64,000 nucleotides of DNA from Heteronotia binoei. Its lineage: Eukaryota. The translations under genes were made by a program, and so were the position numbers. Positions 7,012-35,646 of the stretch are shown piece by piece. How positions within the stretch are numbered: the first letter of the stretch is position 1; the number at the start of each line of letters is the position of its first letter. The notes beneath the pieces were generated by a model. That model was not told the DNA's origin. It did no database searches and saw only the letters and a list, made by a program, of their open reading frames with translations. The stretch spans positions 43,710,001-43,774,000 of the forward strand of contig NC_083232.1 in assembly GCF_032191835.1 (NCBI RefSeq), read 5' to 3'.

Positions 7012-7191
7012 TCTTGATCATACCGCAAGTCCGCTCACAATCTTTCTCACTTGAAAATTTATTTTCATTCCCTCCACATCCACCATAATTGAACTCCTTG
7101 CAAGTCTGTGTGTATTGGTCGTAATACCATTTAGGAATGATAGCCTTGCAGAATCCTATATCGCTTGGCAGCAGGCAGATCTCCCTGTTGT
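7012..7191 (-). CDS. Kunitz exon (KD1 type), P1 = Lys
   Basis: 180 nt, DNREICLLPSDIGFCKAIIPKWYYDQYTQTCKEFNYGGCGGNENKFSSEKDCERTCGMIK; TTATAG acceptor, GTAAGT donor. Not listed in the ORF track. Confidence 0.93.
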
Positions 7192-10100
7192 CTATAAGAA
7201 AAAGGGAAATATAAGGTGCTTCAGTTCAATCTGATTGGACCTTGTAAATAGATCCCACTTCAACAAAAGCAGTCATGGTAGCCTCTGCCAACTGTGGACA
7301 GTTAACCCAAAAGCAAGAGATAATTTTCTCATGATCATTGTACATCATCTTCCAGTTGCCCATCAAGAGTCACCTTGGCATAGTGGTTACAGGGGCTAGA
7401 GAGACAGGATTTAAATCCCCACTCTGCCATAAAATTTGCTGGGTGACTTTAAGTCCCCTTCTACCTAGCCTACCTCATACAGCTGTGGTTGTGGAAGAAA
7501 TGGGTAAGAGGAAGGATAGGATAAGCAAATGATAGATATATAAGGGAACATAAGATAATGGAAGATAACAAAATATAAAGTTTGGGGAGGAACCAAGCAT
7601 TTGCATGGCACTGTCTGGGGCAGTGATGCTCTGCATTCTTGGTGCCTTGGAGGCAACAGTTGGAGGGCTTCCAGAGTCTGGCCTGCTGGTGGACCTCCTG
7701 ATGGACCTGGTGCTGCAAGCCATGGCAAGTTGGCTCAGGCTGAGTAGGTTGAAGCTGAATTCAATGAAGACAGAGGTCCTTTGCCTAGGTCATGGCAGTC
7801 TGGGAAGGGAAATCCCTCTTCCAGTTTTTGATGGTACGCCATTGAAAGTGGTGCGCAAGGTCAAGAGCTTGGGGATTCTACTGGAGCCTTCCTTGTCAAT
7901 GGAGGCCCAGATAGCAGCCACGGCTAAATCCGCTTTTTTCCACCTTAGACGTGCAAGGCAGTTGACTCCCTTCCTAGAGTGTGCCGGCTTGGCAACATGC
8001 AACGGTCACCTCGATTTGGATTACTGTAATGCTCTTGGATTACTGTAATGGGGCTGCCCTTGTGCCAAACCCAGAAGTTGCAGCTAGTGCAATGCGGCAG
8101 CCAGGCTGTTATTAGGGCTCCCGAAGTGGGAGCACATGCAACCGGGGCTGTGGACTTCAAACAGAGACAGGCAGCTGTCTAGCCTGAGATATCCTGCACA
8201 CAGGAAGGTGAGACTAAATTGCCTAGAAGGCTTCTTCCAATTCCAATAGGGGGGGGGGGGGAACAGTATGGAAAACAGCATTACCTTCCTCTGACAGGCA
8301 GTAATTCATACATGAAAATTTAGTCAAAAATCGATTTTCATTTCCTTTACATCCCCCATAGTAAAATCTGTCACACTTCATTGTATTCAGGTTAAAGAAA
8401 TATCTTTTATAGAAAGCTCCACATTTTCCTTCATTGAGTTCCGGTCGGCATTCTTTGGGAACTCCTAAAGTAAAAAGAATCTACATGTCAATCAAAAGGC
8501 CAACCTAAGGTCAATTTATGAGCCATGCTGCCTGGTTGGGCAAAGTGTCCATCCCTGTTGGCTGTGGTATGGCTGGTAGGACCAGTGGTCCATGGAGTTC
8601 CTCAATATTTCTATCAACAGTCTACACACAGTTACATTGACATCATCACAGACATGGAACACCGACCACATGGTAACCATTAACAATAAGGTTATGAAAA
8701 GGACATGGTCTTTTAAAAATGGAAGATTGTGTTCTTGGTAATCACAGGCTTTTTTCCCTACATTTATACCCTACTTTTCTCCACAGTGGGGACCCATAAC
8801 TGCTTACAGCATTACATTCTATTTTACCCCTCAGAATACCCCTGTGAGTGCATATAGCCAGCAATATAGTGGAACAGTTGCTGGATTGACCAAAAAAGAC
8901 CATAGAGGATGTTTATGTACACAGAAACATGCATAGCCTGGCCTCTCAGTTACACATGCCAAAAAGAGACCCAGCAAAGAATAGCCTTGGAGAGGGACAA
9001 GAATCAAAGTAGTAATGGCCTTGAGTTGATTAGATGTCAAAGTTGTTGAGGCCAAGGTGCAAAAGAATGTCAAGAATGTCCAATTTCACATAAGTGAACT
9101 TGTGGTTCAAAGATGGGGCATATTAGTTGGGGGCCAGAAGATATCTATAGGCATAAGACACTTGTGATTCTTATTTTTAAACAGGCTTTGTTAAGATAAT
9201 AGCAAGAATGAACAAATAGGTCTTATATATTTTAAGAAGGATTTTCATGTACAGATAACCTTGTATGGTGTTTGAGGATAAGCAGTTAATTAGCCAAGTA
9301 TGTGTGCCTTTATCAAGTGGGACAACCAGCTTTTGTTAGGAGATAATGTTCAGAACCTACAAATATGGGAAGCTGGATTGATTGAGAACTACTTCTCAGA
9401 AGTGACCTACTTATCTTTGGGGAAATATATATTTTATAAACTCATGTAATCGCTCTCCTTTAATTCTTTGCGTGCCTCTAATAGATGGTATAGATTGCTG
9501 TTGATTTGATAGGGAATGCAGCACTGCTTTAATAAAATGCTTTAATAAAAGATTAACATGGAAGCAATTTTTTTTAAAAAATGTATTATTTGTATGCTGT
9601 ATCCACAGCAGATCAAAAATGTTACTGAGTTCTACTTCAAGTCATTAGCTAAATGATCTGACATTGGAAAGTTAACACTAGATGTCCAGGGCTTTGTATG
9701 TACATGCCTATCTCTGAATCAGAGTTGACTAGAGTAGTTTGGATGAGAGACGACTGGTCCAAGATCACTCATCAAGCTTCCATGGTCGAATAGGGATTCA
9801 AAGCTGGGTCTCCAAGTTTGCATTCTGGCATTGTAGCCACAACATGCTTTAGAACAGCGATAGGGAACGTTGGCTCGCCAGATGTTTTTTTTGCCTACAA
9901 CTCCCATCAGCCCCAGCCATTGGCCATGCTGGCTGGGGCTGATGGGAGTTGTAGGCAAAAAGCATCTGGAGAGCCAACGTTCCCTACCTCTGGTTTAGAA
10001 CAATCCTTCCTAAGGTATTACTGTTCTAATTCCAGTGATTTTCTTGTTTACATAGGGGAAATAGTATAAAAGTCACTAACTACCTCATTCTGTGACTCAG

Positions 10101-12234
10101 TTATGCAAGCTGGCAACCCTAGTGGTGCATCTCACACATTATGAGCACAACTCCAAAACAGGACTTATTCCTATCTGCTCTTTAGCACCTCAGAAATGGC
10201 ACATGACACAAAATTGGACTGCTCTAGCTTATAAGGCACACAGAAAGCTTTAGGAGATCACAGGGTATCTATTTTGAAAGATTAACTTGAGTTGCTGCAG
10301 AAGACTTACAGTTAGAAGGATTGAAAGGACACAACATCTCAAATATGATGAGTATGCTTACTTAAAAAAACATAGGTTTCAAAATCTGTCCACAGAAACC
10401 AGTGACTATATTAAAGTGAGCAATGGAAACAGCAGTCTGTGGCCATGATGGTAGTAATAGAGGTCAGCAATGAAAACTTATTGTGACAAGAACCCACAAT
10501 TCATTTGAGATCACAATTATACAATGGATTGACTTACTCTTGATCATACCACAAGTCTGCTCACAATGTTCCTCACTTTCAAAGTTATTTTCATTCCCTC
10601 CACATCCACCATAATCAAACTCCTCGCAAGTCTGTGTGTATCGGTTGTAATACCAACTAGGAATGATAGCTCTGCATAATCCTATATCTCTTGGCATCAG
10701 GCAGATCTCTCTCTTATCTGTTTGAAAAAGGGAAAGAGAAGGTGCTTCAGTACAATCCAACTGGAATGTGTGTTTACCTTGCAAATAGATCCCACTTCAA
10801 CAAAAGCAGTCTTGGCAGCAGAGCACTATGGACAGTTAACCCAAAAGCAAGAGATAATTGTCCCATGACCGTTATGCACAGTCTTCCACCATCTTTCAGT
10901 TGCCCATCAAGAGTCAATTTGGCATAGTGGTTACAGAGGTTAGGGCTAGGGAGACGGGATTCAAATCCCCACACTGCCATGAAATTTGCTGGGTGACTTT
11001 GAGATAAGTCCCCTTCTACCTAGCGTATTTCATACAGCTATTGTTGTGGATGAAATGGGTAAGAGGAAGGATGGGATAAGCAAATGATAGATATAGAAGG
11101 GAACATAAGGTAAGGAAGGGATACTGTCATTTGGCTGTGCCAGGCTCTGACCAGGCTTGGCCTATCTTCCCTTGGCGTAGTGCTCACAGGGACTAGGACT
11201 AAGGAGACTGGATGCAAATCCCCAGGGTAGTCTACCATGAAATTTGCTGGGTAAACTTGAGATAAGTCCCCTTCTATGTAACCTACCTCATAGGGCTGTT
11301 GTGGATGAAATGGGTAAGAGGAAGGATGGGAAGTATATGATTGGAGATGAAGGTGAGCTTTTCTAGAAGAAGTTTGTGGAGGGACCACAGTGTAGTGGGA
11401 AAGCATCTACATGGCATCTAGAAGGTGCCAGGTTAGGTACCCTGTCAGCCCCCCCCCCCCCCATGCATACATTTCCAGCTAACGGGATCAGATAGCAGGT
11501 AATGTGAAAGACTTCCTCCTGAGACCCTGAAGAGCCCTTAGCAGTTTGAGCAGAATATGCCAACTTTGATAGACTAACAGTCTGATTCAGTATAAGGTGG
11601 CTTCATGTGTTGAAGGTTGACCTTAAATGGGACACACTTGACCTTTTGTAATAGGTAAAACTAGAGGCAAGCTGCAAGTGTCCTATCTATAGAAATTTTC
11701 TTTTGTGGACTGCACACTTCATGTTTGGATTACTTTAATTATGGGAATTAATACGGATAAAGAAAAACTGGCATGTGCCATATAAAAAGGTAAAGGTAGT
11801 CCCCTGTGCAAGCACCAGTCATACAGACCCCTAAATACTGCACGCGTGGTGTGTGTGTGTATGTGGGGAGGGCGGGGGCTGACTCCCTACTGCAGCTCCA
11901 GAGCAGTCGTCGAAGAACGGGTGCATCTACGAGTCAATTATTTATCCCTCCCAAACACTTCGAGTTCGGAGGGGAAAGGAAAGGGCCGGCGGATGTCTCG
12001 AAGAAGCATCACACTGTGCAAACGCACCGACCGGCTGGCGACGGAACTCCCCCTCTGTCGGTCCAAAGAAGCAATGGACAAAGCAACCCCAGAAGAGCTC
12101 TGGAGGGCCGCCGCGAAGCTGTTCCTCAAGCCATTACCTTTCACGGCGTCCCTGAAGGGACAGACATGGCCCAGAAGCAGCAAGAAGCAGCCTGCCAGCA
12201 AGGCGTCCTGTCGAGGTCCGGAGCGCAGCGCCAT
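7012..12234 (-). CDS. TFPI2-like paralog T3: signal peptide-KD1-KD2-KD1' (3' end not in window)
   Basis: Exons 12234-12138, 10717-10538, 8464-8285 and 7191-7012, all GT-AG and phase 1, join into an open frame with three six-cysteine Kunitz domains. Splicing in this order is inferred, not observed. Confidence 0.8.
7711..8155 (+). mobile_element. L2 LINE fragment
   Basis: ORF 7605-8048 (WLRLSRLKLNSMKTEVL...SAFFHLRRARQL...LDYCNAL) is homologous to the L2 at 18.5-20.3 kb. Confidence 0.85.
8285..8464 (-). CDS. Kunitz exon (KD2 type), P1 = Gly
   Basis: 180 nt, (R)VPKECRPELNEGKCGAFYKRYFFNLNTMKCDRFYYGGCKGNENRFLTKFSCMNYCLSEE; TTTAG acceptor, GTAATG donor. Not listed in the ORF track. Confidence 0.93.
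9855..9992. mobile_element. Short palindromic MITE
   Basis: Self-complementary: TAGGGAACGTTGGCTC...CTACAACTCCCATCAGCCCC / GGGGCTGATGGGAGTTGTAG...GAGCCAACGTTCCCTA. Confidence 0.7.
10538..10717 (-). CDS. Kunitz exon (KD1 type), P1 = Arg
   Basis: 180 nt, DKREICLMPRDIGLCRAIIPSWYYNRYTQTCEEFDYGGCGGNENNFESEEHCEQTCGMIK; AACAG acceptor, GTAAGT donor. Confidence 0.93.
12138..12234 (-). CDS. T3 exon 1, signal peptide
   Basis: MALRSGPRQDALLAGCFLLLLGHVCPFRDAVK, phase 1, donor GTAATG; homologous to TFPI2 exon 1; lies in a CpG-rich block. Confidence 0.88.
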
Positions 12235-12289
12235 TGCGAGCAAAGAGGATCTGGGGCGCAGCAGCGTTTGCCGTCCTCTGCCCGGGCCC

Positions 12290-12400
12290 CCGACCAGCCC
12301 CCTTTATATGGGCTAATGTTCTCCCCCCGCTCCGGCGGGGCGCGGAGAGGAAGGCCTGTCATGCCTGCTGGTTCTGCGCTTCACCCACTTCCCCAATAGT
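12290..12400 (-). promoter_or_regulatory. T3 core promoter (TATA box, GC boxes)
   Basis: TATAAA on minus at 12303-12308, about 70 nt above the ATG; GC-rich upstream; same layout in T2 and TFPI2. Confidence 0.65.
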
Positions 12401-12454
12401 ATTCTCCACTAGGTAATATGAAGGGGAAGGGGAGAGCGAGGGGTGGGGCACGCA

Positions 12455-12660
12455 AGGTTTTCATGCCAGATCTGGTTTGGGAAATTCCGGGAGGCTTGGT
12501 GGCGGAGCCTAGGGAGGGCGGGGTTTGGTGAAGGAGGCCCGCAGGGTATAATGCCATACAGTTTAGCTTCCAATGCTGCCATTTTGTCGAGAGGAACTGC
12601 TCTGGGTTGGAATACTTGCGATCTCCAGGCCACTCTCTGTTTGGAGGTTGGCAACCTTGC
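12455..12660. mobile_element. About 200-bp MITE in T3 promoter
   Basis: Similar to the inverted element at 42321-42511 and ends in GGTTGGCAACC; homologous copy in the T2 promoter at about 25575-25790. Confidence 0.55.
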
Positions 12661-13875
12661 TCTCTAGCCACACTAGTTTTCTCCACCATTTCCACAGAGA
12701 GAGTGGAGGTGTTCATCTTCCAGCTCACAGTGAGGAGTCAGGGTCTATAAGTTGACATACCCCCTGAATCCTATAGTTTCAAGATATTGAAAAGTATGTG
12801 TAATACTTAAAAACCTTCCTTTCTCCGAAATTTAAAGGTTAATCGCTGCAGCTTGTCAGATGTCAGAATTTGATTCAGCAACCCCAGATGCTTTGGAAAG
12901 CAGTGACTGAAGAGCCAACTATGGAAAGTACCACTTCTCTTCTTTTTATCCATGGGAATTTTAAACTGTGGGAGGGGGGTATTTTAAGATCTAAACATTA
13001 CAGGTGCAAACTGAACTGGCATACCAGAAATGGACTTAACACCTGCATATCCTTTTGAAAAATACTATATTGGTTTTACTGAAAGTGCTCAAGCTTTGCT
13101 GTAGAAGCACCTTTTCTAAATTTCTCCAAGATGGTGGCGGAAGGAAGGAGAAGCAATATTGCTGTAGCTTTAGTGTTCCTGAACTAATCCAAGTCTTGGA
13201 TGCAGCAGCAGGCAAAAATAAATAGCAATGGAGTGAATCCTTTGGCAATGTAATTATGTACTTCAAAATTTGACCTTCGTTCTGTTTCCTGAGGTGCCTG
13301 ATGAAGATGAATGATCATTGGCAGGGGAACAAAATAGGAGTCAAGTTGCACCTTTAAGACCAACTTAGTTTTATTGTCCACTTGGATCTATCATTGGCAG
13401 GGTTATTTCATAGAAAAAAAGGGGCCAGAGCTCATTATCACAACTCATTTGCACATCCCACACTCTCCTGACATCACCGGAAGGTATACTAAATTCTTTC
13501 AGCCCAGCATCTACCTTAAAAGGCTTCTTGTATAATACAACCTTACTCCTGTCATACTTTTTAAATTACTTTCTCCTACATGGCCACAGTGGCATGATGA
13601 AGATTTCTATCTATCTGCTTTATATGTTTTGGTTATTTTCCCATTTTTTGGTGGGGAAAAATATTACAAAGTTTGTCAGATCTTCAGTTCAGCAGCATTC
13701 TTACAGGGGCTTTGAATAATGGAGCCCAGAAGCAAAGGTTTTTTTTGGGGGGGGGGAGGTAAGAAAAGAAACAGCACAATAAAATTTAGAGGTTCTGGAG
13801 CTCCTGTCCAAAATGAGGCCTAATAATTGGTTAGACATTTTGAAGGATAATTATTACAAACATGTTAGTTCTCCT

Positions 13876-14073
13876 CAGGGCTTTGTTTGTAGAGAAAGCC
13901 CAGCTGGAACTCATTTGCATATTAGGCCTCGCCCTCTTATGTCACCACTGTGTCACACAGTGCTTTTTGTTGAAAAAGCCCAGCAGTGGCTCATTTGCAT
14001 ATTAGGCCACACCCCCTTAAACCAAGCTGACTGGAACTGCATTCCTGTGCGTTCCTGCTCAAAAAAAGCCCTG
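13876..14073. mobile_element. hAT-type MITE carrying two octamer motifs
   Basis: TIRs CAGGGCTTT / AAAGCCCTG, perfect 8-bp TSD GTTCTCCT (13868-13875, 14074-14081), ATTTGCAT twice. Relatives at about 22712-22886, 33387-33503, 57714-57910, 60075-60185 and 62092-62280. Confidence 0.8.
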
Positions 14074-14439
14074 GTTCTCCTGAAGTGGGGTGGGGGGCAG
14101 CATCTGTTTAAGCTGTGGGGTGGTGGGAAGACAGCAAGGGTAGGTGAGTGAGTGAAGGCCAAGGGTTGGTGGGTGGGTGGGAAGATAGCAAGGGGAGGGG
14201 GTGAGTGAAAGTCATGGGTGGGGAAGTAGTGGAGTGCCAAGGATGTGGGGGTAGTCAAGAGGAAGAGGTATTTTGGGGATAGGTGATATTTGGAGGTGGG
14301 GTTGGAAGTTGGAGGTGGGGGGGGAGTGAATGACTTCACTTGGGTGGGTGGGAAATCAGGAAGGGGGGGCACTTGCCAAGAGCCTCTTTCTAGAGCCCAT
14401 TGTATTTTTCTTCACAACAAGCCTTATTCCTAGTGATTG

Positions 14440-15810
14440 TATAAAAGCCAAAATAATGTTATCAGCCCTTATATCCCAATGAGTAGATGTTGCACTCTTG
14501 CAGGAGATTCGTCTGAAAAATAATCAGCTTCCTTTTTTCACATCTATTGGTTGCCCACATAGGTCAATGCTTCTGGAATGTCCAAGTCTAGAGGCACGGC
14601 AATATTATTATCCAAAGCAGTCAGATTTCACTTAGACGCCACTGAAATAAGTCCTACAGGTAGATTCATCTTTGTGAAAGGCAAAGGAAATGGGGATTTG
14701 ACCAACCCTAGCATCTATCTATGCATCAAATATGGGGCAACTAGATTTTCTTCACTCCACATTCTGTAAATTATTACAACTTCAAGAAGGCCTCATAATC
14801 TTAGGAGGTTATCTCAACCTTATTGCAGATCCTGTTAAAGGCAGATCTTCCTCAACTAAATTAAGACATTAAAATGGAATCATCAGAATGTCTATCAAAA
14901 CTTACTCAACTATTTAAGGAATATGATTATCTGGAGGGACCTTAACACTAACGTCATGGATTACACTTTTTACTTGACAAGACTGAAAATTTATACATGA
15001 ATAGATTATATTTTGGTATCTTCTCTGAGATGCAAAATTCTTCAAGCCTCTATTGGAATTATAAAATGGTTGTATCATGCCCCAGTAAAGTGTTCTGTGA
15101 TGAATAAAGTTGCAAATACCTATAGGTTTGATTGGTCACTTAATAAAAATTTATTGTTGGTTGATAATACATCCCTACCAATAGGAAATTAAATACTATT
15201 TCAAAAACAACATGAAATGCAGAGTTCCATTTCATACGGCTTGGGATGCATTCAAGGAAGTAATCCAGGAAAAGTGCTTTGCATTATTCTACAAAAAAAG
15301 GAAAAACCTTTTAAAACAATATCTTCTGTTACAGATTAAACAGCTAAAACAGCTACATAAGAAAAATTGAAGAACTTATAATCAGCTTCTAATAGAAAGA
15401 AAAAAATAGAATCATTAGAAGTTTCTCAAAAAAAATATTTTTAAACCCCTTATATTCTTTATTTAAACAATTCTGGCATAAAAATCCTAAATCATTTAAG
15501 ATTGTATCTTGGAAAATTCATTAAAAGCTATCATCTAGGCAAATTAATTCTATAAAAGATGAAAATTGTGTCTTACAATTTTCTATGCAATATTCATCGG
15601 ACTTTTGTCCAGTATTATTCTCATTTACATGGAACCTCAAATATGAACAAATCAATACTTAAATATCTAAATTCTTATTCAGAATATCATAAAATCTTTA
15701 TAGAACAACCAGCTTCAGGATGTTTTGGGCACTATTCTGTCACTAAAAAAATGGTAAAGCACCAGGCTGTGATGGGTTTCCAGCAGAATTTTCCAAAAAT
15801 ATTGTGAAAT
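14440..15810 (+). mobile_element. Heavily degraded L1 ORF2 (endonuclease region)
   Basis: MSKSRGTAILLSKAVRFHLDATEISPTGRFIFVKGK and ...RIDYILVSS-like remnants match the L1 APE endonuclease; many stops. Confidence 0.7.
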
Positions 15811-17359: not shown

Positions 17360-17479
17360 TTTCCTCAGGCAGTCAGTAATCCATACAGGAAAATGTAATG
17401 AAAGCTCAATTTCCATGTCCTTCACATCCTCTGCATTTGAATCTCTTGCACATAATTGTACATAGATTAAAGAAATATT
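17360..17479 (-). pseudogene. Pseudo-exon of KD2 type (5' third deleted, two stop codons)
   Basis: KYFFNLCTIMCKRFKCRGCEGHGN*AFITFSCMDY*LPEE; TGA at 17408-17406 and 17375-17373; acceptor and first two cysteines removed by a deletion fusing it to intron-2 sequence. Confidence 0.88.
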
Positions 17480-17856: not shown

Positions 17857-18036
17857 TCTTCATTAAAACGCAAGTCTGCTCACAATCTTCCGGACTTTCA
17901 AAGTTATTGTCATTCCCTCCACATCCACCATAATCAAACTCCTTGCAAGTCTGTGTGTATTGGCTGTAATACCATCTAGGAATGATAGATCTGCATAATC
18001 CTATATCTCTTGACATCAGGCAGATCTCTCTCTTAT
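17857..18036 (-). CDS. Kunitz exon (KD1 type), P1 = Arg
   Basis: 180 nt, DKREICLMSRDIGLCRSIIPRWYYSQYTQTCKEFDYGGCGGNDNNFESPEDCEQTCVLMK; intact splice sites. Confidence 0.9.
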
Positions 18037-21000: not shown

Positions 21001-23116
21001 TCTCCCAGGCTCTTCAAACCTACCTCTGAGCAGAAATGGCATCCTGGTCTACCTGGCTCACCTGGCAGTGATGCCATGGCCAAAATGGGTACCACCGACA
21101 TGGCTACCTCTGCCTCATAGTGATGGTGATGGTGGCCTCCTTGCTTGTCTACCTGGGCTCTGACAGCCTTGCAGGGATCCTGTACCAGACACTGGCCTAT
21201 CATGGCCTATCTGTCATCCTCACTCCCTATAGTTGACCTGAACAGGGGGATTCAGAAGTTATGGTTCCCCAAGGCTACGGGTCTATCAGTAGCTTTCCAG
21301 GTGGCCATAATGGCTAGTCTACTTCTGATCCTAGACAGAAAGGTTCAGGGGACAGATATTATTTTGTCAGGAATCGGTTCAGTGACTCAGCTGAGCTCCA
21401 GAGCCTCTTACAGCTCCCATTCCTTCCCTAACAATCCAGACAAAGACTGCAGGCACATTTCCTCCTCTATCTACCCAATGAAAAGTGCAAGAGACCTTTT
21501 TAATGAAATGAAAGCTGGGGATTCAGAGGGACAACATCATTTATTGAGAACACTGCCTGCATATGCCCTCTGTTGCTGCTGGCCTGCTGACCCTGAGGGG
21601 AAGTGGGGGCTTGGCCTCTCTAGTGGACATCAAACAGAGACAGGCAGCTGCCTAGCCTGAGATTTCCTGCATAGCAGGAGATGAGACTAGATTGCCTACA
21701 AGGCCCCTTCCAATTCAAAGATTCTAGTATAGGAAATAGCATTACCTTCCTCTGACAGGCAGTGATCTATACATGAAGATTTAGTCAAAAATCGATTTTT
21801 ATTTCCTTTACATCCTCTGTAGTTGAATTTCTCACAACTCATTGTATTTAGGTTAAAGAAATATCTTGTAATGTAATGTTCACATTTTCCTTCATCTGGT
21901 TCCAGTCGGCATTTTTTGGGAACTCCTAAAATAAAAAGAATGTGTGTCAATCAAAAGCCCAGGTTAAGGTCAATTTATGAGCCATGCTGTCTGATTGGGC
22001 AAAGCGTCCACCCCTTAAGGCTTCGGTATGGCTGGTAGGACCAGTGGTCCATGGCATTCCTCAGTCCTTCTATCATCAGTCTAAACACAGTTACACTGGC
22101 ATCTTCACAGACATGGAACACTGACCACATGCTAACCATTAACAAAAAGGTTATGAAAAGTACATGGTCTTTTAAAAATGGAAGATTGTGTTCTCAGTAG
22201 TCACAGGCTATTTATTTCTATATTTACCCTATTTTTTCTCCACAGTGAGGACCCATGATGGATTACAACATAGGGCTTTATTTGAACCCGCAAAACATCA
22301 CTGTGAGGTAGTATCGTGCATATAGCCAGGAATATAGGGGAACAGTTATTAGACTTGACCCAAAATATCACAGAGCATGTTCTTTACAGAAATATGGATA
22401 GCCTGGCCTCTCAGTTACACATGCCAAAAAGGGAGTTCAGAGACCCAGCAAAGAATAGCTTTGGAGTGGGACAAGAATCAAAGTAGTAACACAATTATAT
22501 GCCCTTGTGTTGATTAGAAGCTGCGGTATCCCTGTCGATATTGTTGAGGCCCAGGTGCAAAAAAGTCTGAGAATGGCAAGAATTTCCAACTTCACATAAG
22601 TGAACTTATGGATCAAAGATGGGATGTATTGGTTGAGGACCAGAAGATATGTCTATGAGACGACACTTGTAATCCTTGTTTTTAAATAGGCCTTATTAAA
22701 ATAAACAGTAGCAGGGCTTTTTTGAGCAGGAACGCAGTTCCGGCTGGTCTGGTGCCAGGGAATGTGGCCTAATATGCAAATGTATCCCCACTGGGCTTTT
22801 TCTATGTGAAACAACGATGAAATCAGGGGGTGTGGCCTAATATGCAAATGAGTTCCTGCTGGGCTCTTTCTACCAAAAAAGCCCTGTGAACAAGCATCTC
22901 TTATACAGTATATTTTAAGAAGGCTTTTCATGTACAGATAACCTTGTATGGTGTTTGAAGGTATGTAGTTAGTGAAGAATGTGTGCCTGCATCATGTGGG
23001 GAAGCTAGCTTTTGTTAGGAGATTATGTTCAAAACCTACAAATATGGGATGCTGAATTGACTGAGTTTCTTCTCAGAAGGGGCTACTTGCTTGTGACCTA
23101 CTTATATTTGGGGAAA

Positions 23117-23149
<33 letters not shown>

Positions 23150-25360
23150 AATTATTTGTGTAACGCTAATAGATGGTATAGATTTCTGAAGATTTGTTGT
23201 GAATGCATCATCACTTTAATAAAATGTTTAATAAAAGATTACCATGGAGGCATCTCACGTATTATGAGCAGAACTCCAAGACAGGAACTTATTTCTATCT
23301 GCTCTTTAGCACCCTAGAAATAGCACAGGACCCATAATTGGGCTGCCCTACTTATAAAGTTGGAAAAACAACAAAATACTATCCCCATGTACAAAACTAT
23401 TTCTCAATGTAATATATAGTCACAACAATTCGTAATATTTTTACAATACAGATATGCAGTTAAATGTCTTGTGCATGACATAGCTACTGTCCATAAATTA
23501 TAATATTTTCTGAATCCAGTCCGATGATAAAAAGAACCTGTCCAATTTCATTTTGGGTGTGGGCCACCCTTCTTCTAGGGGCCGTCTTCCAAATTCATAG
23601 ATTCAGTAGACTTGTGCTACAACTATTCCTGGCTTCCTCTGGGTTTTTTTTTACATTTTATTCATATGAAATGAATGCCACTGTGAATTTCTATCTATCA
23701 GTACACTGACAACAATCCAAAATTCATTTGGGATCACAATTATAAAATTAGTTTACTTACTCTTGATCTCACCACACATCTGCTCACAATCTTTTTCACT
23801 TGGGAATTTATTTTTATTCCCTCCACATTCACCAAAATTAAACTTCTTACAAGTCTGTTTGTATCGGTCGTAATACCAACCAGTCCTTGGAGCATTTTTA
23901 GATCGGCAAAATGCTCTGTCTTTTGGCAGTAGGCAGATATCCCTGTTGTCTGTAAGAAAAAGGAAAAGAGAAGGCGCTTCAGTAAAATCTGATTGGAAGA
24001 AGGATATTGGATTTATATCCCGCCCTCCACTCCAAATCTCAGAGTGGCTCACAATCTCCTTTTACCTTCCCACAACAGACACCCTGTGAGGTGGATGGGG
24101 CTGAGAGGACTCTCACAGTAGCTGCCCTTTCAAGGACAACCTCTGCCAGAGCTATGGCTTACCCAAGGCCATTCCAGCAGGTGCAAGTGGAGGAGTGGGG
24201 AATCAAACCCAGAGTCCACACACTTAACCACCACCAGACTGGCTCTCTACTCCAAACTGGAGTGTGTTTGCACCTTGTAAACAGATCCCACTTCAACAAA
24301 AGCAGTCTTGGCAGCAGAGTACTATGGACAGTTAGTTCCCAAGCAAGAGATAATTGTCTCATGGCCATTGTGCACAGCCTTCCACCAACTTCCAGTTGCC
24401 CATCAAAAGTCAATTTGGCAGAGTGGTTACAGGGATGAGGGAGATGAAATTCAAATTCCCGCGCTCTGCCATGAAATTTGCTGGGTGACTTTGAAAAAGT
24501 CCCCTTCTATCTAGTTTACCTCAAAAGGCTGTTGTTGCCAATGAAAGGGTAATCATATGATAGAATGAAGGAAACAGAGGCAAATTTTTCTAGAAGTTTG
24601 CGGGAGGACAATGGCATAGTGGCAATCTTCATGGGATGCAGAAGTTCTTAGGTTAGGTACCCTGTCTCCCCTCCCCCCCCCACACGCACATTTCTAGCTA
24701 AAATGATCAGATAGTATAGCAGGTAATGTGAACGACTTCTCTGCCAGAGACCCTGACTAGTACTTGGCTGTGTCAGCAGAAAATGCCAACTTTGACAGAC
24801 TAAGGGTCTGACTCAACATAAGGCCGCTTCATGTGTTGAGGGCTGACCTTAAATGGGACAAGCGTGACCGTTTGTAGCAGGTTAAACTAGGGGCAAGCTG
24901 CAAGTGTCCTATCTATAGAGATGTTTTTTTGTAGACTGGACATTTCACATCCGGGTTACTTTGGTTGTGGGAATTAATATGGGTAAAGAAAGACTGGCAT
25001 GTACCATATAGACCCCTGAATATTGGGTTGGGGGAGTAGTTCTAGAGCAGTCGTCGAAGAAGGGGCGCTTCTCACGCTTCTGGTACGGAGAGGAAAGGAA
25101 AAAGCCGGCGGATGTCTGGACAGGAGCACCACGCCGTGCAAACGCACCGACCCGTCGGCGACTGCATCCCCCCTCGGTCGGTCCAATGAAGCAATGACCA
25201 AAGCAACCCGAGAAGAGCCCGGGAGGGCCACCGCGAAGCCGCTCCTCAAGCCAACACCATTCACGGGGTCCCTGAAGGGCCAGGCAAGGTGGCCCAGAAG
25301 CAGCAGCCAGAAGCAGCCTGCCAGCAAGGCGACCTGTCGGGGTCTGGGGCGCAGCGCCAT
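17857..25360 (-). CDS. TFPI2-like paralog T2: signal peptide-KD1-KD2-KD1' (then pseudo-KD2; terminal exon not identified)
   Basis: Exons 25360-25258, 23949-23761, 21925-21746 and 18036-17857 are all phase 1 and join in an open frame. The exon-1 donor is a weak GTGTTG. Splicing is inferred. Confidence 0.72.
18472..20292 (+). mobile_element. 5'-truncated L2 LINE
   Basis: RT motifs (PVSNLPFLGK, QSGFRPGH, LLDLSAAFD, YADDTQLY) across ORFs 18751-19242 and 19056-20078 with a frameshift near 19127; L2 3' end and (TTTAC)n tail. Confidence 0.93.
21746..21925 (-). CDS. Kunitz exon (KD2 type), P1 = Glu
   Basis: 180 nt, (R)VPKKCRLEPDEGKCEHYITRYFFNLNTMSCEKFNYRGCKGNKNRFLTKSSCIDHCLSEE; intact splice sites. 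Confidence 0.93.
23761..23949 (-). CDS. Kunitz exon (KD1 type) with 3-residue insertion in the binding loop
   Basis: 189 nt, DNRDICLLPKDRAFCRSKNAPRTGWYYDRYKQTCKKFNFGECGGNKNKFPSEKDCEQMCGEIK; six cysteines, frame kept, TTACAG acceptor and GTAAGT donor. Confidence 0.9.
24001..24248 (-). mobile_element. Squam3-like SINE in T2 intron 1
   Basis: Near-identical to 2032-2307; about 50 nt above the KD1 acceptor; absent at the equivalent site of the other repeat units. Confidence 0.85.
25258..25360 (-). CDS. T2 exon 1, signal peptide
   Basis: MALRPRPRQVALLAGCFWLLLLGHLAWPFRDPVN, phase 1; donor GTGTTG at the position where T3 has GTAATG. Confidence 0.85.
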
Positions 25361-25409
25361 CACGAGCAAAGAGAATCTGGGGCGCAGTCGCGTTTGCCGG
25401 CCTCAGCCC

Positions 25410-25520
25410 CGCTCAGGCCCTTTTATAGGGGCCCAAACTCGCCTCCCGCTCCGCTGGGGCGCAGGGAGGAGGAAGGCCGGTCATGACTGCTGGCTCCGCT
25501 CTTCAGCCGCTGCCTCAATA
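25410..25520 (-). promoter_or_regulatory. T2 core promoter (TATA box, GC-rich)
   Basis: TATAAAA on minus at 25421-25427; CpG-rich block about 25.0-25.75 kb. Confidence 0.65.
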
Positions 25521-26585: not shown

Positions 26586-28025
26586 ATGAAGATGAATTGA
26601 CTGCCATTGGTTAGACATTTTGGATGATTATTTTTAAAAATGTTCATTCTCTTCAAAGCAGGGCCAATTTAAGACATGTGAGGCCTTAAATCTTGAGACA
26701 CCTCGTATAGCATTAACCCTATAATGGAAATATAGTAATCTGTAAGGATTTTTTAAAATCCCTCATAACCAATATACTTTTGTGTATAAACCTAGCTGTG
26801 GTTCAAGTAGTCTCCATTCTCTAATGTAGGGTGTGTAGGTTATCACAACCCAATTTGACTGGCAATCCAAAATTTTGTATAACAAAAAACTAATTTATCC
26901 AAGGATCCTCAGATGGGAGTTCATTCAGTATAGTTGGGTAATCTGACACTTTGATAAAAGAAAATGTTAGATTAAATTAGAACAGTGTAAGAACATAAAA
27001 GAGATATTCTATTGGACTGTGATCCTTCCAGCATCCTGTTTCACACAGTGGCCAAAACAGTTGCCATGGAGGCCCAACAAATAGAGTGGAGAGGCCAAGG
27101 CCTCTTCTGATGATCCCTCAAGGCAATGGTATCCATAGCTTGCTTCTTCTGTGTATGGCACTTCTCTTTAGTCACCATGGTTAGTAGCCACAGACTGACC
27201 TATTCTCCATGAATCCCTTTAAAAAGCATCTTACACTAGTGCCCACCAATTACATGATTGAATGGTTTGACCTTGGCCTAGGATCTGGGACATACAGGTT
27301 CAAATCCTCATCGTATCATGCAAGCTTCCTGAGCCAATCACTCACTTCCCATCTGAACTACCTCACAGAATTGTGAGGATAAAATGGAGGAGGGCAGAAT
27401 GTTGTAACCCAGTTTGGGTCTCCATTGTGAATAAAAGGGGGCATAAATGAATTGAATAAATGCATTCACTGGTCTGAATTCTACAATGTATATAAACTGT
27501 CTAGGATACAAGGAGTATCTGTGCAGGTGCAATAGCAGACTAATCTGGAGCTTTGTGGCACTTTAAAAATTAACACATCCTTGTTCCATCACAAGAGTAT
27601 ATCTGCAGAAGTGAACCATAGTCCACAGAGGTTTATGTTGTTAGTCTTTTAGATGTCATAAAAGTCCTGTTTTCTTCCATTGAGGCTAATGGGGCTATTC
27701 CTCTGTGAAATAGTTCTCAGTGAAATAGGATCTAGTATAACAGCAGAGGAGGAAGTTTGTGGACATTCATTTGCCAGATCAACAAGAACTTCTGTTCCTC
27801 CTCTGTTATGGGTATTTAAACCTGGGCGTGGCCAGAGGCATGAGCCTTTGGCATGAACCAAGCCTGTGGCATCTTGCCTGTGGCCTTGAGTGAGCCAAAC
27901 TAGTATAAACAGTGCCAGCGATGGAACATTTTGTGAGGTGCTTTGAGTTCCCAGACAAATAGAATATGAATATGTAAAACTTGTGGTTCAGGTGCTGTTG
28001 GAAGCCATTATGCATATATGCTCAG

Positions 28026-28322
28026 AAAGGTAAAGGTAGTCCCCTTTGCAAGTACCTAGCCATTACTGACCCATGGGGTGACCTCACATCACAATTTTTT
28101 CATGGCAGACTTTTTGTTATGGGGTGGTTTTCCATTGCCTTTCCCAGTCATCTTTGCTTTACTCTCAGCAAGCTGGGTACTCATTTTACTGATCTCAGAA
28201 GGATGGAAGGCTGAGTCAGCCTTGAGCCGGCTACCTGAACCCAGCTTCCACGGTGATAGAACTCAGGTCATGAGCAGAGCTTGGACTGCAATACTGCAGC
28301 TTGCAACTCTGCACCACAGGGC
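28026..28322 (-). mobile_element. Sauria-type SINE
   Basis: (ACCTTT)n tail and ...GGGTACTCATTTTACTGATCTCAGAAGGATGGAAGGCTGAGTC... body. A tail-only fragment is at about 11785-11822. Confidence 0.8.
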
Positions 28323-29954
28323 AACCATGTTACAAAACAAGGGTAGAAATAAACAAGAGCATAAAAAAACCAGGTACTGGAGCACAGATGAAGTACTGAG
28401 ATATAATATAAATAAACTTTCAATTTTATTTTGTAACTCATTTAAATAACAGGTTGACACATGTTGACATATTTACAAGGGAGTGAATTATATTTGCACT
28501 GAACCATTTAGTATATGACCTACACCTTCATCAACTGCTAATATTTTACCCGGTACAGGTGCAAAAATACTTGACACATGAAGACTTAGGGAGAGGGCAA
28601 TAAGGAGGTGAGACAGGTGAGTGTTCCCTGGTTTAGAGCAAATATTCAATTTAGCATAAGGAGATTAACAGAGGCATGTATAAATGCATCTGTTAAAAAA
28701 AGAGATGTGATCTTATTTCCAGTCTTTAGGAATTTCAGTTTCCTATGTAGTTGCTTTGGATCTGTTGTTCCTCATTCATCACTAGGAATAAATTAATGAT
28801 GAAGAGAAATCCTATTGTTTTACAACCAAAATCAAATGGTGGGGGAAAATGTAACCATTATTTCAGTCACCGGTACACAACCTTAAATAGCTTATTGGTC
28901 TTATTTGCTAATAAAAAGCTTACAAGAGCTAGATTTGAGTCTATTCCATTTAATTTCGAGAAACAACACTTTTGGAGATAACAGGCTTTGAAGAGTCAAA
29001 GCTCCCTTTGTCAGATACAAGATTAGCTCTGACTCTTGAAATCTCATTGGTCTCTAAGGTGCTACAGGATTCGTATCTAGCTTTTCTATGGGAGATGAAC
29101 ACGGCTACCCTCTAAAGGTAAGTTTAGAGTTAATTGTATTAGCAACACCCATGAAAACATGAACAAGTCATAATAGTTAAACATTCCCCCCTAACCTGAC
29201 ACAAACAGACTCAATAATATGATGATATGACTATTCCTTATCATCTTCATAAGAACTTCACAACTAAAAGCAGCAATATTTATTTTTACGGCCCTGAAAA
29301 ACTGACTAAAAGGTTGGTGTTTCAGCTGTACAGTGCTTAAGCCCTTCTCCCAAAACAGCAGGACAATTTCTGTATGCCATAAAGAAGGCCATGTTACTAC
29401 AAGTTTATTTACATTTAGTTTTAAACTTATGAAAATACTCACATACATTAAAAAAGACCTTGGGGATCTTTAGGTTCTGCAAAAGGATTCAAGAAAGCTG
29501 GCAATCCTATAAAGCAGTGACATCTTCTCGGCATGGCCTAATCACATATTAAGGCAGAAAGACAAGAGCGTAGCTCTCATTCCCCATATAACAGGATGGT
29601 GAAAAGACAGATCCCATCATTCAGAGCGTGGCAGAGAAAGGAGCATACGTGTGTGGAGCATGGTGAATGGAGTCCACTGGTGCCTACCAAGATCTCTGAA
29701 TGGGGTTCAGCTACCCAGATGCAGGACCTTTGAGTCTAGCTTCTCCAGAAGCTAGGTCACACAAGATCTACTCCAGAACAATGGGTTACTTGAAAATTGC
29801 CCGGTCTGAATCTGGTTTGGAACAATCAACAACTGATCATACAGGAAAATTATATATTATCAAAATTATAAATTAAGTTGAAGCATTGGGTTGCTTCCTC
29901 AGATAAAAACAGTAGGTGACATTCCATCAGACTGTTGTTGAAAACACCTCTTCC

Positions 29955-32900
29955 TCATGTCCGGGGTTTTGGTTTTTTCCCTGCTAAAAAGAACAACAAC
30001 AGAAATCAGATCACAATCCCACATATTTGAACACTCTATTCACTGTAGCAGCAGTTGTTGGTGGGGTGTGTGTGTGGAATTACATTGTTTCTGGAAAAAG
30101 ACAATCCCACCCACTGTTTGACAGTGGATAGAAGGTGAAGTGAAATGAAACATATGCTTTTACCATTGGAAAAGTCATTAATGTGGCATAATTGCTGAAA
30201 ACTGTCCAAAGCATGTGCTTTCATGAATAGGTGATTTAAATGCAAAGTTTGCTTCTAGTAGATTTGATTTCCTGCATAAAATGAGCTTGCACAATTTTGT
30301 ATTTCTGGTAGACAACAAGTTTGACTCTGGTTGATTTGAAGGGGTGGTAGATAGCCAGTCCCCTCATTCTGCTTTACATTTCCCTTCCCAATCTGTCTCC
30401 CCATAACATTCACTGTCTTCTTCCTAGAACCACCTTGAGCAAGTCTGGAGAGGCAATGTACCAATTTTCTAGGGAAATGGTGTCATTTGCCCTGCTTCAA
30501 AGGACAAGATATTTTTCTGACTTCCCTGGAGCATCTAGCTGGATAGCATCTACATACAACATTCTCAATTTGCTCTCCATAAACTAGCTCAAGTCTGCTT
30601 CCACAAGTGCGGATTGTCCATGTTGCTTTCATCACTGTCATTGGTACTGGCAATGGCAGTTTCCATCCGTGGGAGTTTTCTATGCATGTTGCTGTATGTT
30701 TTTTTCCAACTTTTCCCCCTATATGTGCTGTACTGAGTCTCAAGAGCATGGTCATTCTGGCTGTCAGGGTAACTTTTTTCATGCATGTGCTACAGCACTA
30801 TAATGGTTCTAATATGATTTATAACAGACACACAGAAGTAGATTGCTATAGTGCTTTAACAGTTACCCGGTTTTGTTCAAAATGCTGTTGGGTGGCACGG
30901 CATGAAAAAAATGCTGGAAAAATGGTTCCTGTGGTGGGCTGACAGTGGAGAAATGGTGATGATCTAGTCAAGAAATGTATACTATTCCTTTCAGATTACG
31001 TGCTAACATGCTAGGACTGCCTTTACAAAAAAAAAAATCAGTGTAAACCATGCTTGAGAAAGCACATAGAGAGGATGGGGGAAACTGAGCAAAAAACGAT
31101 TGCATCATGGGGAAGCTCCCCCCCCCCCCAAAAAAAAAGCTAAGAGTGGAAACTGCAAGAACAGCACTAGATGCTGCTGCATGGGTGCTCAATTGTTCAC
31201 CACTGGGGAAAACTTTCAGTCCTCCACTCCCTTACAGAATGGGTGGAGTGGTGATGGATAGTCATGTATTCATTACCCCCAAAAGTTGACCTATGATCGT
31301 CTTAACACTTTCTAGGGAATTAACATTTAACAGGTCCCTGTGCCATGGACAACCCACTCTTATTCATTTTTACAAGGAAACTAAGTCTCCATGGCTTGGA
31401 TCCAGAATAAAATTTCTGCTTACACAAGGCGCTTTTGTCAGAGTAATGGAATGTTTCTGCCTTCCCCTGTACTGCAGCCCACTGATCTCCCTGAAATGTT
31501 TCTCCTGTGGCACAGGGTACCCTCAGAAACAGCACATGTGTCTAACTGGGAAGGGGGGGGGGGCGCTGCAACAGGAAGAGGGAATTGGTGGAAATTACCC
31601 CCATCCCTTCCATGAGCAGGAAATGTAATCTGAATACAACCCACTGAGTTCAACATGATAGCAGTATTTTTTTCCTAGTTGTGAAGCCTTTTTAGTTTCC
31701 AAAAATTTAATGTATCCCAAGCATTTAGATTTGAATAAATGACCATAACTCTGCTCTGACCTGAATAGCCCAGGCTAGCCTAACCTTATTGGAACTTGGA
31801 AGCTAAGCAGGGTGAGCCTGGGCTAGTGCTTGGGGGGAAGACCCCCACGGAAGCCTAGGGTTGCTAAGCAGATCAGGCCATGGCAAATCACCACTGTTTG
31901 TCTCTCACCTTGAAAACCCCAAGAGGAGTTGCTGTAAATTAGCTGCAACTTGACGGCATTTTATGTGCATGCACATACACACACAAATACACACACAAAC
32001 ACAAATGCCTATAACTAGCTATCATGCCCAAAGGAAAGCAGCATACCTTTCTTACAGACTTTGATACAATCTTTCATCCTTGCAAAATTGTTTTCATTCC
32101 CACCACATCCGCTATAGCTGAATTTTTCACAGGTTTTTGTCTTTCTGTTGTAGTAAAAGCGAGTTACTGAACTTGAGCACGTTCCTTCATCTTTAGGGCT
32201 ATAGCAAAATGAAGGTCCATCTTAAAATTTAAAAAATAGATAAGTTGATGAGCATCTCTTTCTTTCATAGTGCATCCCAAACTTATTAACTGGTTGTGAG
32301 CCGCCCTGAGTCTGCTTTGGTGGGGAGGGTGGGATATAAAATCCAATAAACCTTAAGGAGGAAAAAGATACCCATTTTCTAAAATTATAAATATTTTCAG
32401 ACATCTAACACTGGAAACATGGGCATACTGTTTGCCTGATAGTAAAAGCCAACATTCCAGCACAGACATAGGAGAAAATAACTTCAGATTTGAACTTAGG
32501 AAGGGCACATAACATAGAGTCAGACATGTGGCTCTATGTGTATACAATGCCATTCTCTATTTTTTGCAATAAGCATGTATGACTTTCTTACTGTACTAAT
32601 ACAACTAGGCTACAGAACCTAAAAGGTGGTACGCAGGAATAAGCCTGATCCTTAATTACTGGACCATCAAGAAGAGGCATTTTCACCTCCTACCCCAATG
32701 GAGTTCCCATAGGTAGCTCTTTTGTTTAAATGTTGAGAGAAAGAAAAAATTTCATTCATTTATGGCAGAAAAAAATTAAGCAGGGATTATATTACTATGG
32801 CATCAAGCCATAGCTCTGATGCTTGATGGCTCACATATCCTAAAGGGCAGGGCACAGAATGCTTGGTTTGAAATAACAGCTGACAACTCAAGTTTGTAAG

Positions 32901-35646
32901 GCAGGCCCAGCTGATTTTTAGTTTCTACAGCAGTGGTCTCTAAGATGGAGAGAGGGAATGAAAAAAACAAACCAATGAACACCCTCCAGTATCTCTTCCT
33001 TGCTAGCTTATAAATCTTTGAGACCTTTGTAGAGGACAGAGCAAGGGACATAGGAGGGGAGCTTATGTGGGCTAGAGTTCCATTTCTTCCCTACCAATCA
33101 AACTAGACAGGCCCTTGCATTGTATTTTTTAAAAATCCTTACTGTTCAGAGGCAGGCAGTAGTCCATACAGGAATCTTCACTGTCAAATCGGTTCTCGTT
33201 CCCAAGACATCCCCCGTAGTAAAATTTCTCACAGGCCATTGAACTTAGGTTGAAGAAGTATTTCGATATTAAAGCTCTGCATAGCCCTTCATCAGATTCC
33301 AGTCGGCATATTTTAGGAACTTCTGAAGTGAAATGAAAAGAATTTAACAGATCATTAAGATGGCAATCTGAATTATACTTACAAACAGGGCTTTTTTTGA
33401 GCAGGAATGCACAGGAACACAGTTTTAGCTGGCTTGGCATCAGGGGTGTGGCCTGATATGCAAATGAGTTCCTTCTGGGCTTTCTGTACAAAAAAAGCCC
33501 TGTCTACAGACCTGTGGAGTGTTTGTGCGGCTCAGTCCTTCTTCAAACAGAGGCTCCATCATCTTTCCAAGCACAGAACATTTTACCACATGCTGGTATC
33601 GTGTGGTTGTTAGAGTGATGAGGTCGGGGCAGGACTTGCAATGACTGGCTCAGATCCTTGGCTCAACCATGGAAGCCTGCCAAGTGACCTTGGGCCTGTC
33701 ACAAATCACTCAGGCTAACCTATCCTCACAAAGTTGTCGTGAGGATTAAGAGGAGGAGCAGGAAACAAAGTGAAAGACTGCTTTGAGTCCCTGATCAGGG
33801 AGAAAAGTGGAATATAAAAGATAATAAGAATGATTTCATAAGTTCATGGTGTCTGAAAAAAGGGAGATTAGGTTGTCATCTAATATGTTTAGAACAGTTA
33901 TTCTTGTAGTTTTTCTCATGACCATTTATGGTAATTGTCTCTATGGCTGTCTGAAGTAGCTTCCTTCTGTTGAATTAAAAACTGCCATTTCCCCATTAAA
34001 AGGCCTTTACTGCTTCCTGCTCTTTCCAGCCCCAAAAGCTTTCTTGAATTTCCCAGGGTCCTGCCCCTTCAGGTCTGCTCTGCAGTATTCTGTCCGCCTC
34101 CACAGACTTTGCCTGTGGCTGGATCTAAACATCCAACAAGAGGATAGAATCCTGAGAAGGTAGAAAATACAGCTTGGGGAGTACTTTCATACTTGAAAAT
34201 CATTTTTTAATTATTTAAAGACTTAGTAAATGTGGAAACCAAGCTTGTTTATGTGTAGTGTACTGGAATCTGCCTCTCTACACACTGCTATTCCATTTCT
34301 GACCGACTCTCTTACTCATTCTTTCCCATAAACTCACACAAAGGCCCGTTTGAGGTAGTACAGTTCAGCTTACCACCCCATTATGGAGCATACATAGATG
34401 CAGGGATGGTCTCCCAAGTGCAGAAACAGGAACTTGTTTCTATCCTCTCTTGAACTCTCCATGCACATGACACATAGTTGGCCCACCCTAGTTTATGAGG
34501 TTCAAGGACATTTCAGGAGGTTGCAGAACACAGATTTAGAAACAGTGAAATAAAACGCTGCAGCAAAATCCTATTTCTGTAGGGCTGAAATTATACAGCA
34601 TGAACATCTCGAGTATGATCAACATGCAAATGTTAAATAAGCAGTTTTCAAAATCTGGATTGGCACTGATCAGAAACCAGCGGTAATGTTGAATTAAGCA
34701 ATGAAAACATCTCTGTGGTCTCAGAGATGGAAGAACATGTCAGAGATGGAAGAACATGTCAGCGGTGGACATGTCTCAAGCCAAGAATGCAAAATTCAGT
34801 TTTGGATCACAGTTCTCCAGTGGGGTGACTTACTTCTGATCATCCAGCAAGTTTTCTCACAATCTTCCTCAGTTAGGAAGTTATTGGCGTTCCCCTCACA
34901 ACCACCATAGATAAAGTTCTTGCAAGTCTGCGTGTATCGGTCATAAAACCACCTTTCATGAAGAGCTCGACAGGGTCCTTTAAGTGGTGGCTGCAAGCAG
35001 ATCTCTCGGTTGTCTATTGTGAAAAAGACAGAGAAGGTGCCTTAGTTACCACCTGGACCATCAAGGCTTTGTGTGGGTGAGAGGGGAATTCATACAACTA
35101 GATTCCGCTTCAACAACAGCATTCTTGGCAACAAAACAGTTTGGGCAAAACTACTAAATGACAAAGGGAGGGGGGAAGGACTATCTCAGACCCCACACAA
35201 AAACACTCCAGGAGAAAGTAAGTTATATGAGTGAAACATTCATGGGCTAAATTAGTTTGTAATTAACTTAGGCGTCAGCTGTTAGCCTAAACTTGCTTTT
35301 GAAAACTGGCCACTGCATATACCTGAATTTAGGAATAAGTACAGCGAACAGTGCTCCAGCATGCTATAAGTTTGTTTTCAAGAAATATATCCCTATATCT
35401 TTTTACTATTGCCCTTCCTCGCTTCAACTTCCATGCATATTTCTTGTTGGGTCGGGAGGAAGTGGAAAGCGCAGAAAGTTGTCTGTAAACGCGCATCGCG
35501 CCCTCAGTCCACCGAGCAAAGCAAAGAGAGAAGAGCCCCTTGAAGCGATTACCTTTCTTGACCGCCTGGGGACAGGCGTGCCCCAGAAGCAGCAAGAGGC
35601 AGCCTGCCAGCGACACGACCCGCGGGGTCCTAGAGGGCACCTGCAT
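29955..35646 (-). CDS. TFPI2: Tissue factor pathway inhibitor 2 (5 coding exons, 218 aa)
   Basis: Exons 35646-35553 (signal), 35013-34834 (KD1, GPCRAL...YDRYTQTC...YGGCEGNANNF), 33322-33143 (KD2, ...YFFNLSSMACEKF), 32220-32047 (KD3, PSFCYSPKDEGTCS...YSGCGGNENNF) and 29983-29955 (AGKKPKPRT*). 657 nt, open. Motifs match human TFPI2 as recalled, and the head-to-head position with a G-gamma gene fits known synteny. The last exon is the least certain. Confidence 0.93.
31757..31950 (+). mobile_element. 5S rRNA-derived SINE
   Basis: GGAAGCTAAGCAGGGTGAGCCTGGGCTAGTGCTTGG resembles the 5S internal control region, followed by a non-5S body. An inverted head-only copy is at about 45100-45205. Confidence 0.7.

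Follow-up and report, generated by a model that had tools for sequence, protein, structure and literature searches.

Human TFPI2 is encoded by a five-exon gene, carries one inhibitory domain and inhibits plasmin, plasma kallikrein, trypsin, chymotrypsin and XIa via the P1 Arg of its Kunitz domain KD1 (PMC11554837). Its long basic tail is antibacterial, and TFPI2 is up-regulated in wounded skin (PMC3530512) as well as in the uterus of pregnant skinks (PMC3318437). No expansion of TFPI2 in a gecko or other reptile is described in the literature searched, which left subscription journals and supplements outside. Here we analyse the TFPI2 locus of the gecko Heteronotia binoei in a stretch of 64,000 nucleotides (assembly GCF_032191835.1, contig NC_083232.1, positions 43,710,001 to 43,774,000; hereafter the window), where an ordinary TFPI2 gene is accompanied by tandem copies with the domain order KD1-KD2-KD1. 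The cluster is real, partly annotated and undescribed in the literature searched, and it represents Kunitz birth-and-death at a haemostatic gene that is usually single-copy.

With human and reptile TFPI2 (PDB 1ZR0 for KD1), the locus shares the signal exon, the phase-1 KD1 and KD2 exons, a P1 Arg or Lys in KD1 and a neighbouring G-protein gamma subunit (G-gamma) gene. The paralogues termed T2, T3 and T5 below differ from TFPI2 in having a second KD1 in place of KD3, a P1 Gly or Glu in KD2 and no KD2 sequon. Co-opted Kunitz anticoagulants, namely desmolaris of the vampire bat (a shortened TFPI), shrew salivary TFPI2 and the Kunitz peptides of snake venom, are likewise secreted Kunitz inhibitors. 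Desmolaris is a bat inhibitor of XIa (PMC12237034, PMC11645312), TFPI2 is abundant in the saliva of the shrew Blarina, for which no positive selection was reported (PMC7486961), and reptile Kunitz transcripts formed no venom-gland-specific clade in another study (10.1101/006031). Venom and salivary Kunitz toxins are marked by high, gland-restricted expression and by toxic or anticoagulant activity.

Organization of the cluster

A six-frame scan and self-comparison identified nine Kunitz exons in the window, all on the minus strand and all matching Pfam PF00014 (9/9), which form three units, T1, T2 and T3 (Table 1). Each unit has a signal-peptide exon and a CpG-rich promoter (observed/expected ratio, o/e, 0.72–0.78) with a TATA box 67–91 bases upstream of the ATG. 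T1 is a plain TFPI2 orthologue with the order signal-KD1-KD2-KD3-basic tail; it equals RefSeq XP_060103961.1, nests among gecko TFPI2 proteins and lies beside a G-gamma gene (GNG11/GNGT1 type), the neighbour expected from the human gene order. Profiles built from TFPI2 orthologues assigned the order KD1-KD2-KD3 to T1 and KD1-KD2-KD1 to both T2 and T3. A first-pass annotation of the window had proposed a tandem family of TFPI2-derived, putatively secreted Kunitz genes in a lizard, with promoters, signal exons and three intact phase-1 Kunitz exons in this order in both T2 and T3, and all of this agrees with our analysis. The six junctions that it named (12138-10717, 10538-8464, 8285-7191, 25258-23949, 23761-21925 and 21746-18036) are GT-AG, in phase 1 and free of internal stops. 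It had left open whether the genes were already annotated; T3 is, since its exon a is 100% identical to XP_060103680.1 ("TFPI2-like [Heteronotia binoei]", 264 amino acids), a RefSeq model in which the three T3 junctions named above recur.

A genome search returned 71 Kunitz matches, several of them directly left of the window, and 120 kb on that side were analysed as well. The cluster extends 45 kb beyond the window in this direction and comprises five units, not the three initially reported, with all Kunitz exons in phase 1-1 on a single strand. T5 is intact and is trailed by broken KD1 and KD2 pieces (about 43664900-43665930). T4 is a pseudogene sister of T5, in which one KD1 lacks a Cys, KD2 carries a deletion, the other KD1 has a stop and the decayed KD3 is followed by a tail exon. 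The dead T4 and T5 have nearly the same promoter and signal exon, though their introns differ by about 6%, reflecting either recent conversion or a protected CpG island. The signal exon, KD1, KD2 and flanking introns of the paralogues align to T1, indicating TFPI2 descent, and profiles and intron flanks alike identify the third domain of T2, T3 and T5 as KD1, not KD3. All six matches to the derived KD2 exon in a DNA search of the genome fell inside this cluster, at no other genomic place.

Considering the DNA alone, we find it fairly probable that the locus combines an ordinary TFPI2 with four rearranged copies, two of which, the intact T3 and T5, likely encode secreted three-domain Kunitz proteins predicted to act as two-headed inhibitors. 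Every Kunitz exon of T2, T3 and T5 retains six Cys. The P1 residue is Lys or Arg in all 6 intact KD1-type exons of these units and Glu, Gly and Glu, respectively, in their KD2-type exons; the series reads Arg-Gly-Lys in T3 and Arg-Glu-Arg in T5. Given these residues and the action of human KD1 through its P1 Arg, T3 and T5 are predicted to act against trypsin-like proteases through two KD1 heads, which flank a probably non-inhibitory KD2 spacer. Canonical, substrate-like inhibition would be directed at plasmin, plasma kallikrein or trypsin-type enzymes outside the cell, where it would limit the breakdown of clot and matrix, with specificity drifting at P2'. The KD2 sequon, NLS in T1, reads NLN in T2 and T3; the change was correctly noted in the first pass, but it is no special mark, as the sequon is also missing from 5 of 28 ordinary TFPI2 KD2 domains.

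Table 1. Features of the TFPI2 cluster and its surroundings. Positions refer to the window; negative values lie to its left and are C10 positions minus 43,710,000.
Feature	Position	Strand	Remarks
G-protein gamma subunit exon	45823..45960	+	GNG11/GNGT1 type
T1 TATA box	35732..35737	-	in CpG island
T1 signal-peptide exon	35553..35646	-	TFPI2 orthologue; coding part; matches XP_060103961.1
T1 KD1 exon	34834..35013	-	P1 Arg
T1 KD2 exon	33143..33322	-	P1 Arg; NLS sequon
T1 KD3 exon	32047..32220	-	P1 Ser
T1 short basic tail exon	29955..29983	-	coding part to stop
T1 poly(A) signals	29409, 29284, 28430		
T2 TATA box	25422..25427	-	in CpG island
T2 signal-peptide exon	25258..25360	-	degenerate 5' splice donor
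T2 exon a	23761..23949	-	KD1-type; P1 Arg; 3-residue insertion after reactive site; Gly37 to Glu
T2 exon b	21746..21925	-	KD2-type; P1 Glu; sequon lost
T2 exon c	17857..18036	-	KD1-type; P1 Arg
Broken second KD2 behind T2c	17361..17478	-	5' part missing; stops; remnant of duplicated block
T3 TATA box	12303..12308	-	in CpG island
T3 signal-peptide exon	12138..12234	-	RefSeq XP_060103680.1
T3 exon a	10538..10717	-	KD1-type; P1 Arg
T3 exon b	8285..8464	-	KD2-type; P1 Gly like Eublepharis paralogue; sequon lost
T3 exon c	7012..7191	-	KD1-type; P1 Lys
T1-type intron 2 remnant	4440..6810	-	16-21% mismatch to T1; starts younger decayed TFPI2-type segment behind T3
Last exon of RefSeq T3 model	-12432 (C10 about 43697410-43697568)		repeat-derived
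Decayed KD3 behind T3	-17090 (C10:43692741-43692910)		
Intact short basic tail exon behind T3	-19022 (C10:43690950-43690978)		
T4	-22059 to -34097 (C10:43675903-43687941)		pseudogene; left of window
T5	-37931 to -43013 (C10:43666987-43672069)		intact signal-KD1-KD2-KD1 with intact promoter; left of window

3' ends of the paralogues

The first-pass annotation found neither KD3 nor tail exon for T2 and T3, which is true inside the window and not beyond it. A dead KD3 and a tail exon lie 24–26 kb behind T3, and an equivalent pair lies behind T4; T2 and T5 yielded no tail homologue. The tail exon, 26 kb behind T3c, is intact and encodes a peptide identical to that of T1, with one silent change in 29 bases. 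It has an AG acceptor, is in frame when joined to T3c and is followed by ATTAAA about 110 bases past the stop. The last exon of the RefSeq T3 model lies largely in repeat. All seven gecko TFPI2 proteins have a short tail, ending 11 residues past the last Cys (7/7). Given the surviving in-frame tail exon and these short tails, the earlier reading of a tail-less, freely diffusible protein appears unsupported for T3. In the same seven proteins, geckos are seen to be without most of the long basic tail of human TFPI2.

The basic KD3 (isoelectric point 9.2) is genuinely lost from the paralogues. The two dead KD3 exons behind T3 and T4 have 20 differences from T1 in common and 8 private ones each, and the splice sites are weakened in both, indicating that KD3 was likely decaying before the 3' segments were duplicated.

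Origin of the KD1-KD2-KD1 order

Exons b and c are separated by a chimeric intron, whose 5' part is the post-KD2 intron and whose 3' 350–430 bases are intron 1. The intron-1 homology ends at one common point in T2, T4 and T5 and is slightly shorter in the alignment of T3. Remnants of a second KD2 follow exon c in T2 (an element missing from the first exon inventory) and in T5. KD1-KD2-KD1 is therefore likely what remains of one internal KD1-KD2 block duplication in which the second KD2 and KD3 decayed. The free exon recycling proposed earlier fits less well: the chimeric intron makes the mechanism look like block duplication and erosion. A short repeat common to both introns near the b-c junction may have seeded the crossover.

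Two layers of different age can be distinguished. In the older layer, the KD1 and KD2 exons of the paralogues and their flanks are about 30% diverged from T1 (KD1 flanks 22–33%, live KD1/KD2 exons 22–31%), with a synonymous divergence (dS) of 0.7–1.3. In the younger layer, the remnants of intron 2, KD3, tail and untranslated region behind T3 and T4 are 11–21% from T1, and these 3' parts likely derive from a later TFPI2 copy. A test for positive selection that compares the dead KD3 (11% from T1) with the live KD1/KD2 exons was rejected, because the dS of the live exons and the similar divergence of their flanks show that the two differ in age.

The proposed history would begin with an old duplication, before the split of Eublepharis and Heteronotia, that gave a fast-evolving signal-KD1-KD2 paralogue. 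One unequal crossover between intron 3 and intron 1 of this paralogue would then have doubled the KD1-KD2 block, and duplications of the whole unit would have produced T2–T5, the second KD2 being decayed or lost in each. Finally, a 3' segment of TFPI2 type and younger age, carrying a dying KD3 and the short basic tail, would have been placed behind T3 and T4. Because all exons are in phase 1, T3 may finish on that tail by skipping KD3.

Relatives in other species

The leopard gecko Eublepharis macularius has, on one equally long contig each, TFPI2 and a TFPI2-like protein, XP_054847787.1 (164 amino acids). The latter resembles the paralogues in its KD2 P1 Gly (as in T3b), its lost sequon and the absence of KD3 from the model, and differs in that the model consists of KD1-KD2 only. 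An apparent similarity between the Eublepharis tail and a decayed KD1 was not borne out. In a 23-row tree of KD1+KD2, XP_054847787.1 groups with T2, T3 and T5 at 100/97 support, and independent duplications in Eublepharis and Heteronotia were rejected by the approximately unbiased test (p-AU 0.0003 and 0.0008). The shared clade indicates that the paralogue arose before these gecko families separated, and a recent lineage-specific origin, as had been supposed, is thus not supported. This split dates to about 100 million years ago.

The branches of T2, T3 and T5 are much longer than those of gecko TFPI2. The best tree places the paralogue clade outside squamates, probably as a result of long-branch attraction, and a gecko-only origin of the clade was neither rejected nor established (p=0.17). 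No paralogue was retrieved from five other geckos in which TFPI2 was found, a weak negative from word-limited and crowded searches. A protein-representative search with the derived KD2 profile was likewise crowded by long multi-Kunitz proteins and gained only the Elgaria model described below.

Among 366 proteins examined, a non-random sample, 35 had a strong KD2; 29 of these 35 are KD1-KD2-KD3 and one, T3 itself, is KD1-KD2-KD1. The order was thus found in no other species' protein in this sample and is not general among amniotes.

Multiplication of TFPI2 domains recurs in gene models, including those of lizards. XP_063003683.1 of the alligator lizard Elgaria is modelled as (KD1-KD2-KD3)x2, with TFPI2 domains multiplied in tandem as here, and may be two fused gene models. 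It differs from the gecko paralogues in keeping KD3 and in grouping with Varanus, although a joint clade with them was not rejected (p=0.06). P1 is Gly in both of its KD1 domains, which together occupy a long branch, suggesting an altered classical inhibitory head. TFPI2 of Varanus komodoensis, like Elgaria, combines a KD1 P1 Gly with a long branch, a hint that the specificity of TFPI2 has shifted in anguimorphs. The TFPI2 of the coelacanth Latimeria (XP_014354260.1) has five domains, with the KD1-type head multiplied: four KD1-like domains, three of them nearly alike, are followed by KD3 and a basic tail, and domain profiles detected no clear KD2. Podarcis muralis has several near-identical TFPI2 entries, 0–6 residues apart, which may be alleles or model versions.

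Selection and alternative explanations

Of the 17 Kunitz exons in the paralogue region, 9 are intact with six Cys. At neutral-decay rates taken from the paralogue introns (0.094 substitutions and 0.0079 frame-breaking indels per site per lineage), an exon would survive with a probability of about 2%, and nine jointly with 4e-16, a value that rises to 1e-4 if the divergence is set to a quarter of that measured; these figures overstate the case in that the exons share history and are not fully independent. The excess of intact exons over this expectation argues that the paralogue family has been under selection. Codon models, run in our own implementation on few codons and with T4, broken exons and three inserted T2a codons excluded, require an invariant class of about 25% of codons (M1a vs omega=1, p=3e-4). 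The comparison of M2a with M1a gave p=0.018, 0.028 and 0.008 on three trees, and 0.07 on the best-fitting tree or 0.10 without T2, which makes positive selection borderline. The recurrent sites are KD1 position 17 (P2') and KD2 position 9.

These last results bear on an unlikely yet serious alternative, in which the copies evolved in an arms race with foreign proteases of parasites, microbes, prey or predators in skin, gut or oral secretions, rather than against the gecko's own plasmin; it is partly compatible with the reading of T3 and T5 as two-headed inhibitors. Copies have been born and have died, position 17 has a high posterior in all five fits, and the loops of 15 of 18 intact paralogue pairs show a non-synonymous divergence of 0.22–0.48, against 0.11–0.22 in the scaffold. 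However, the support from M2a fades on the best-fitting tree and without T2, conversion between copies can inflate such a test, and the loops of T2c, T3a and T3c are nearly identical.

A further possibility, which we consider rather unlikely, is that the extra copies were once functional and are now all silent or decaying, so that T1 alone works. T4 is dead, and T2 is in doubt: its signal-exon donor matches 3 of 9 consensus positions, compared with 6–7 of 9 in 14 other donors, none of five nearby alternatives is in phase, and T2a carries the loop insertion and Gly37Glu. T2 is accordingly likely dying or unusually spliced, not the safe live gene that it first seemed. An omega near 1 and the uncertain 3' ends of T3 and T5 also fit universal silence. 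It is opposed by T3 and T5, in which 6/6 Kunitz exons retain every Cys and an open frame and the donors match at 6 of 9 positions, by the low joint neutral survival even at a quarter of the divergence, the partial dependence of the exons notwithstanding, and by the Eublepharis paralogue, which is open too.

Several observations nevertheless weigh against T3 and T5 as working two-headed inhibitors. The overall omega among paralogues (0.83–1.02) also fits recent relaxation, and the promoters prove little, since the dead T4 keeps a clean one. The RefSeq T3 model terminates in a repeat-derived exon rather than the tail, and the conservation of the T3 tail is weak evidence (p=0.07 against a 14% background). 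Behind T5c, no poly(A) signal was found within 2.5 kb, nor a tail homologue or another terminal exon. T2 and T5 were not among the proteins listed in protein searches, one of which gave the best 120 of 1308. The targets follow solely from P1, and the KD2 of gecko T1 already has a P1 Arg, so the ordinary gecko TFPI2 may itself be two-headed.

It is very unlikely that read-through transcripts from T1 or T2, with six or more Kunitz domains, use the phase-1 exons of T2, and perhaps those of T3, as downstream modules. The uniform phase and strand of the exons would allow this, T2 combines a poor first donor with three open exons, and the Elgaria and coelacanth models show long arrays. On the other hand, T1 is equipped with a tail exon as well as several poly(A) signals, each unit starts from a promoter of its own, and neither RefSeq model here reads through. 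That the copies are assembly artefacts of haplotype duplication is practically negligible as an explanation: 214 kb of sequence contain no N, the paralogue units are 5.5–19% apart in non-coding DNA with different insertions, and a relative is present in another gecko family.

Flanking and distant features

About 4 kb past the G-gamma exon, the window contains a CpG island (50100-50900, o/e 0.88), probably the promoter of a neighbouring gene. Elsewhere in the genome, 29 of the 71 Kunitz matches form a 770-kb cluster on both strands of C2 (1.39–2.16 Mb), an expansion far larger than the TFPI2 cluster. Five members examined score as generic Kunitz domains, and none of the cluster matched the KD2 DNA of the TFPI2 paralogues.

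Implications

Taken on its DNA, the locus adds another example to the common pattern of Kunitz birth-and-death clusters. Its history is unusually readable, with breakpoints and dead copies preserved. It shows how, from an array of phase-1 exons, a regulator may be remodelled into what is predicted to be a two-headed inhibitor, and multiplication of this kind is seen repeatedly in lizards. The first-pass annotation had raised roles at tail autotomy, in skin or in defence as hypotheses. A bolder proposal, speculative and quite improbable in its entirety, would have lizards repeatedly turning TFPI2 into multi-headed inhibitors, with the loop-diversified gecko T3 and T5 acting bivalently on plasmin or kallikrein to protect the clot and matrix of a shed tail or torn skin, or blocking parasite proteases. 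Should T3 and T5 prove to be expressed in skin or at wounds, they would offer natural variants of plasmin and kallikrein inhibitors and a way to learn how bleeding and matrix breakdown are controlled in geckos after the loss of tail or skin.

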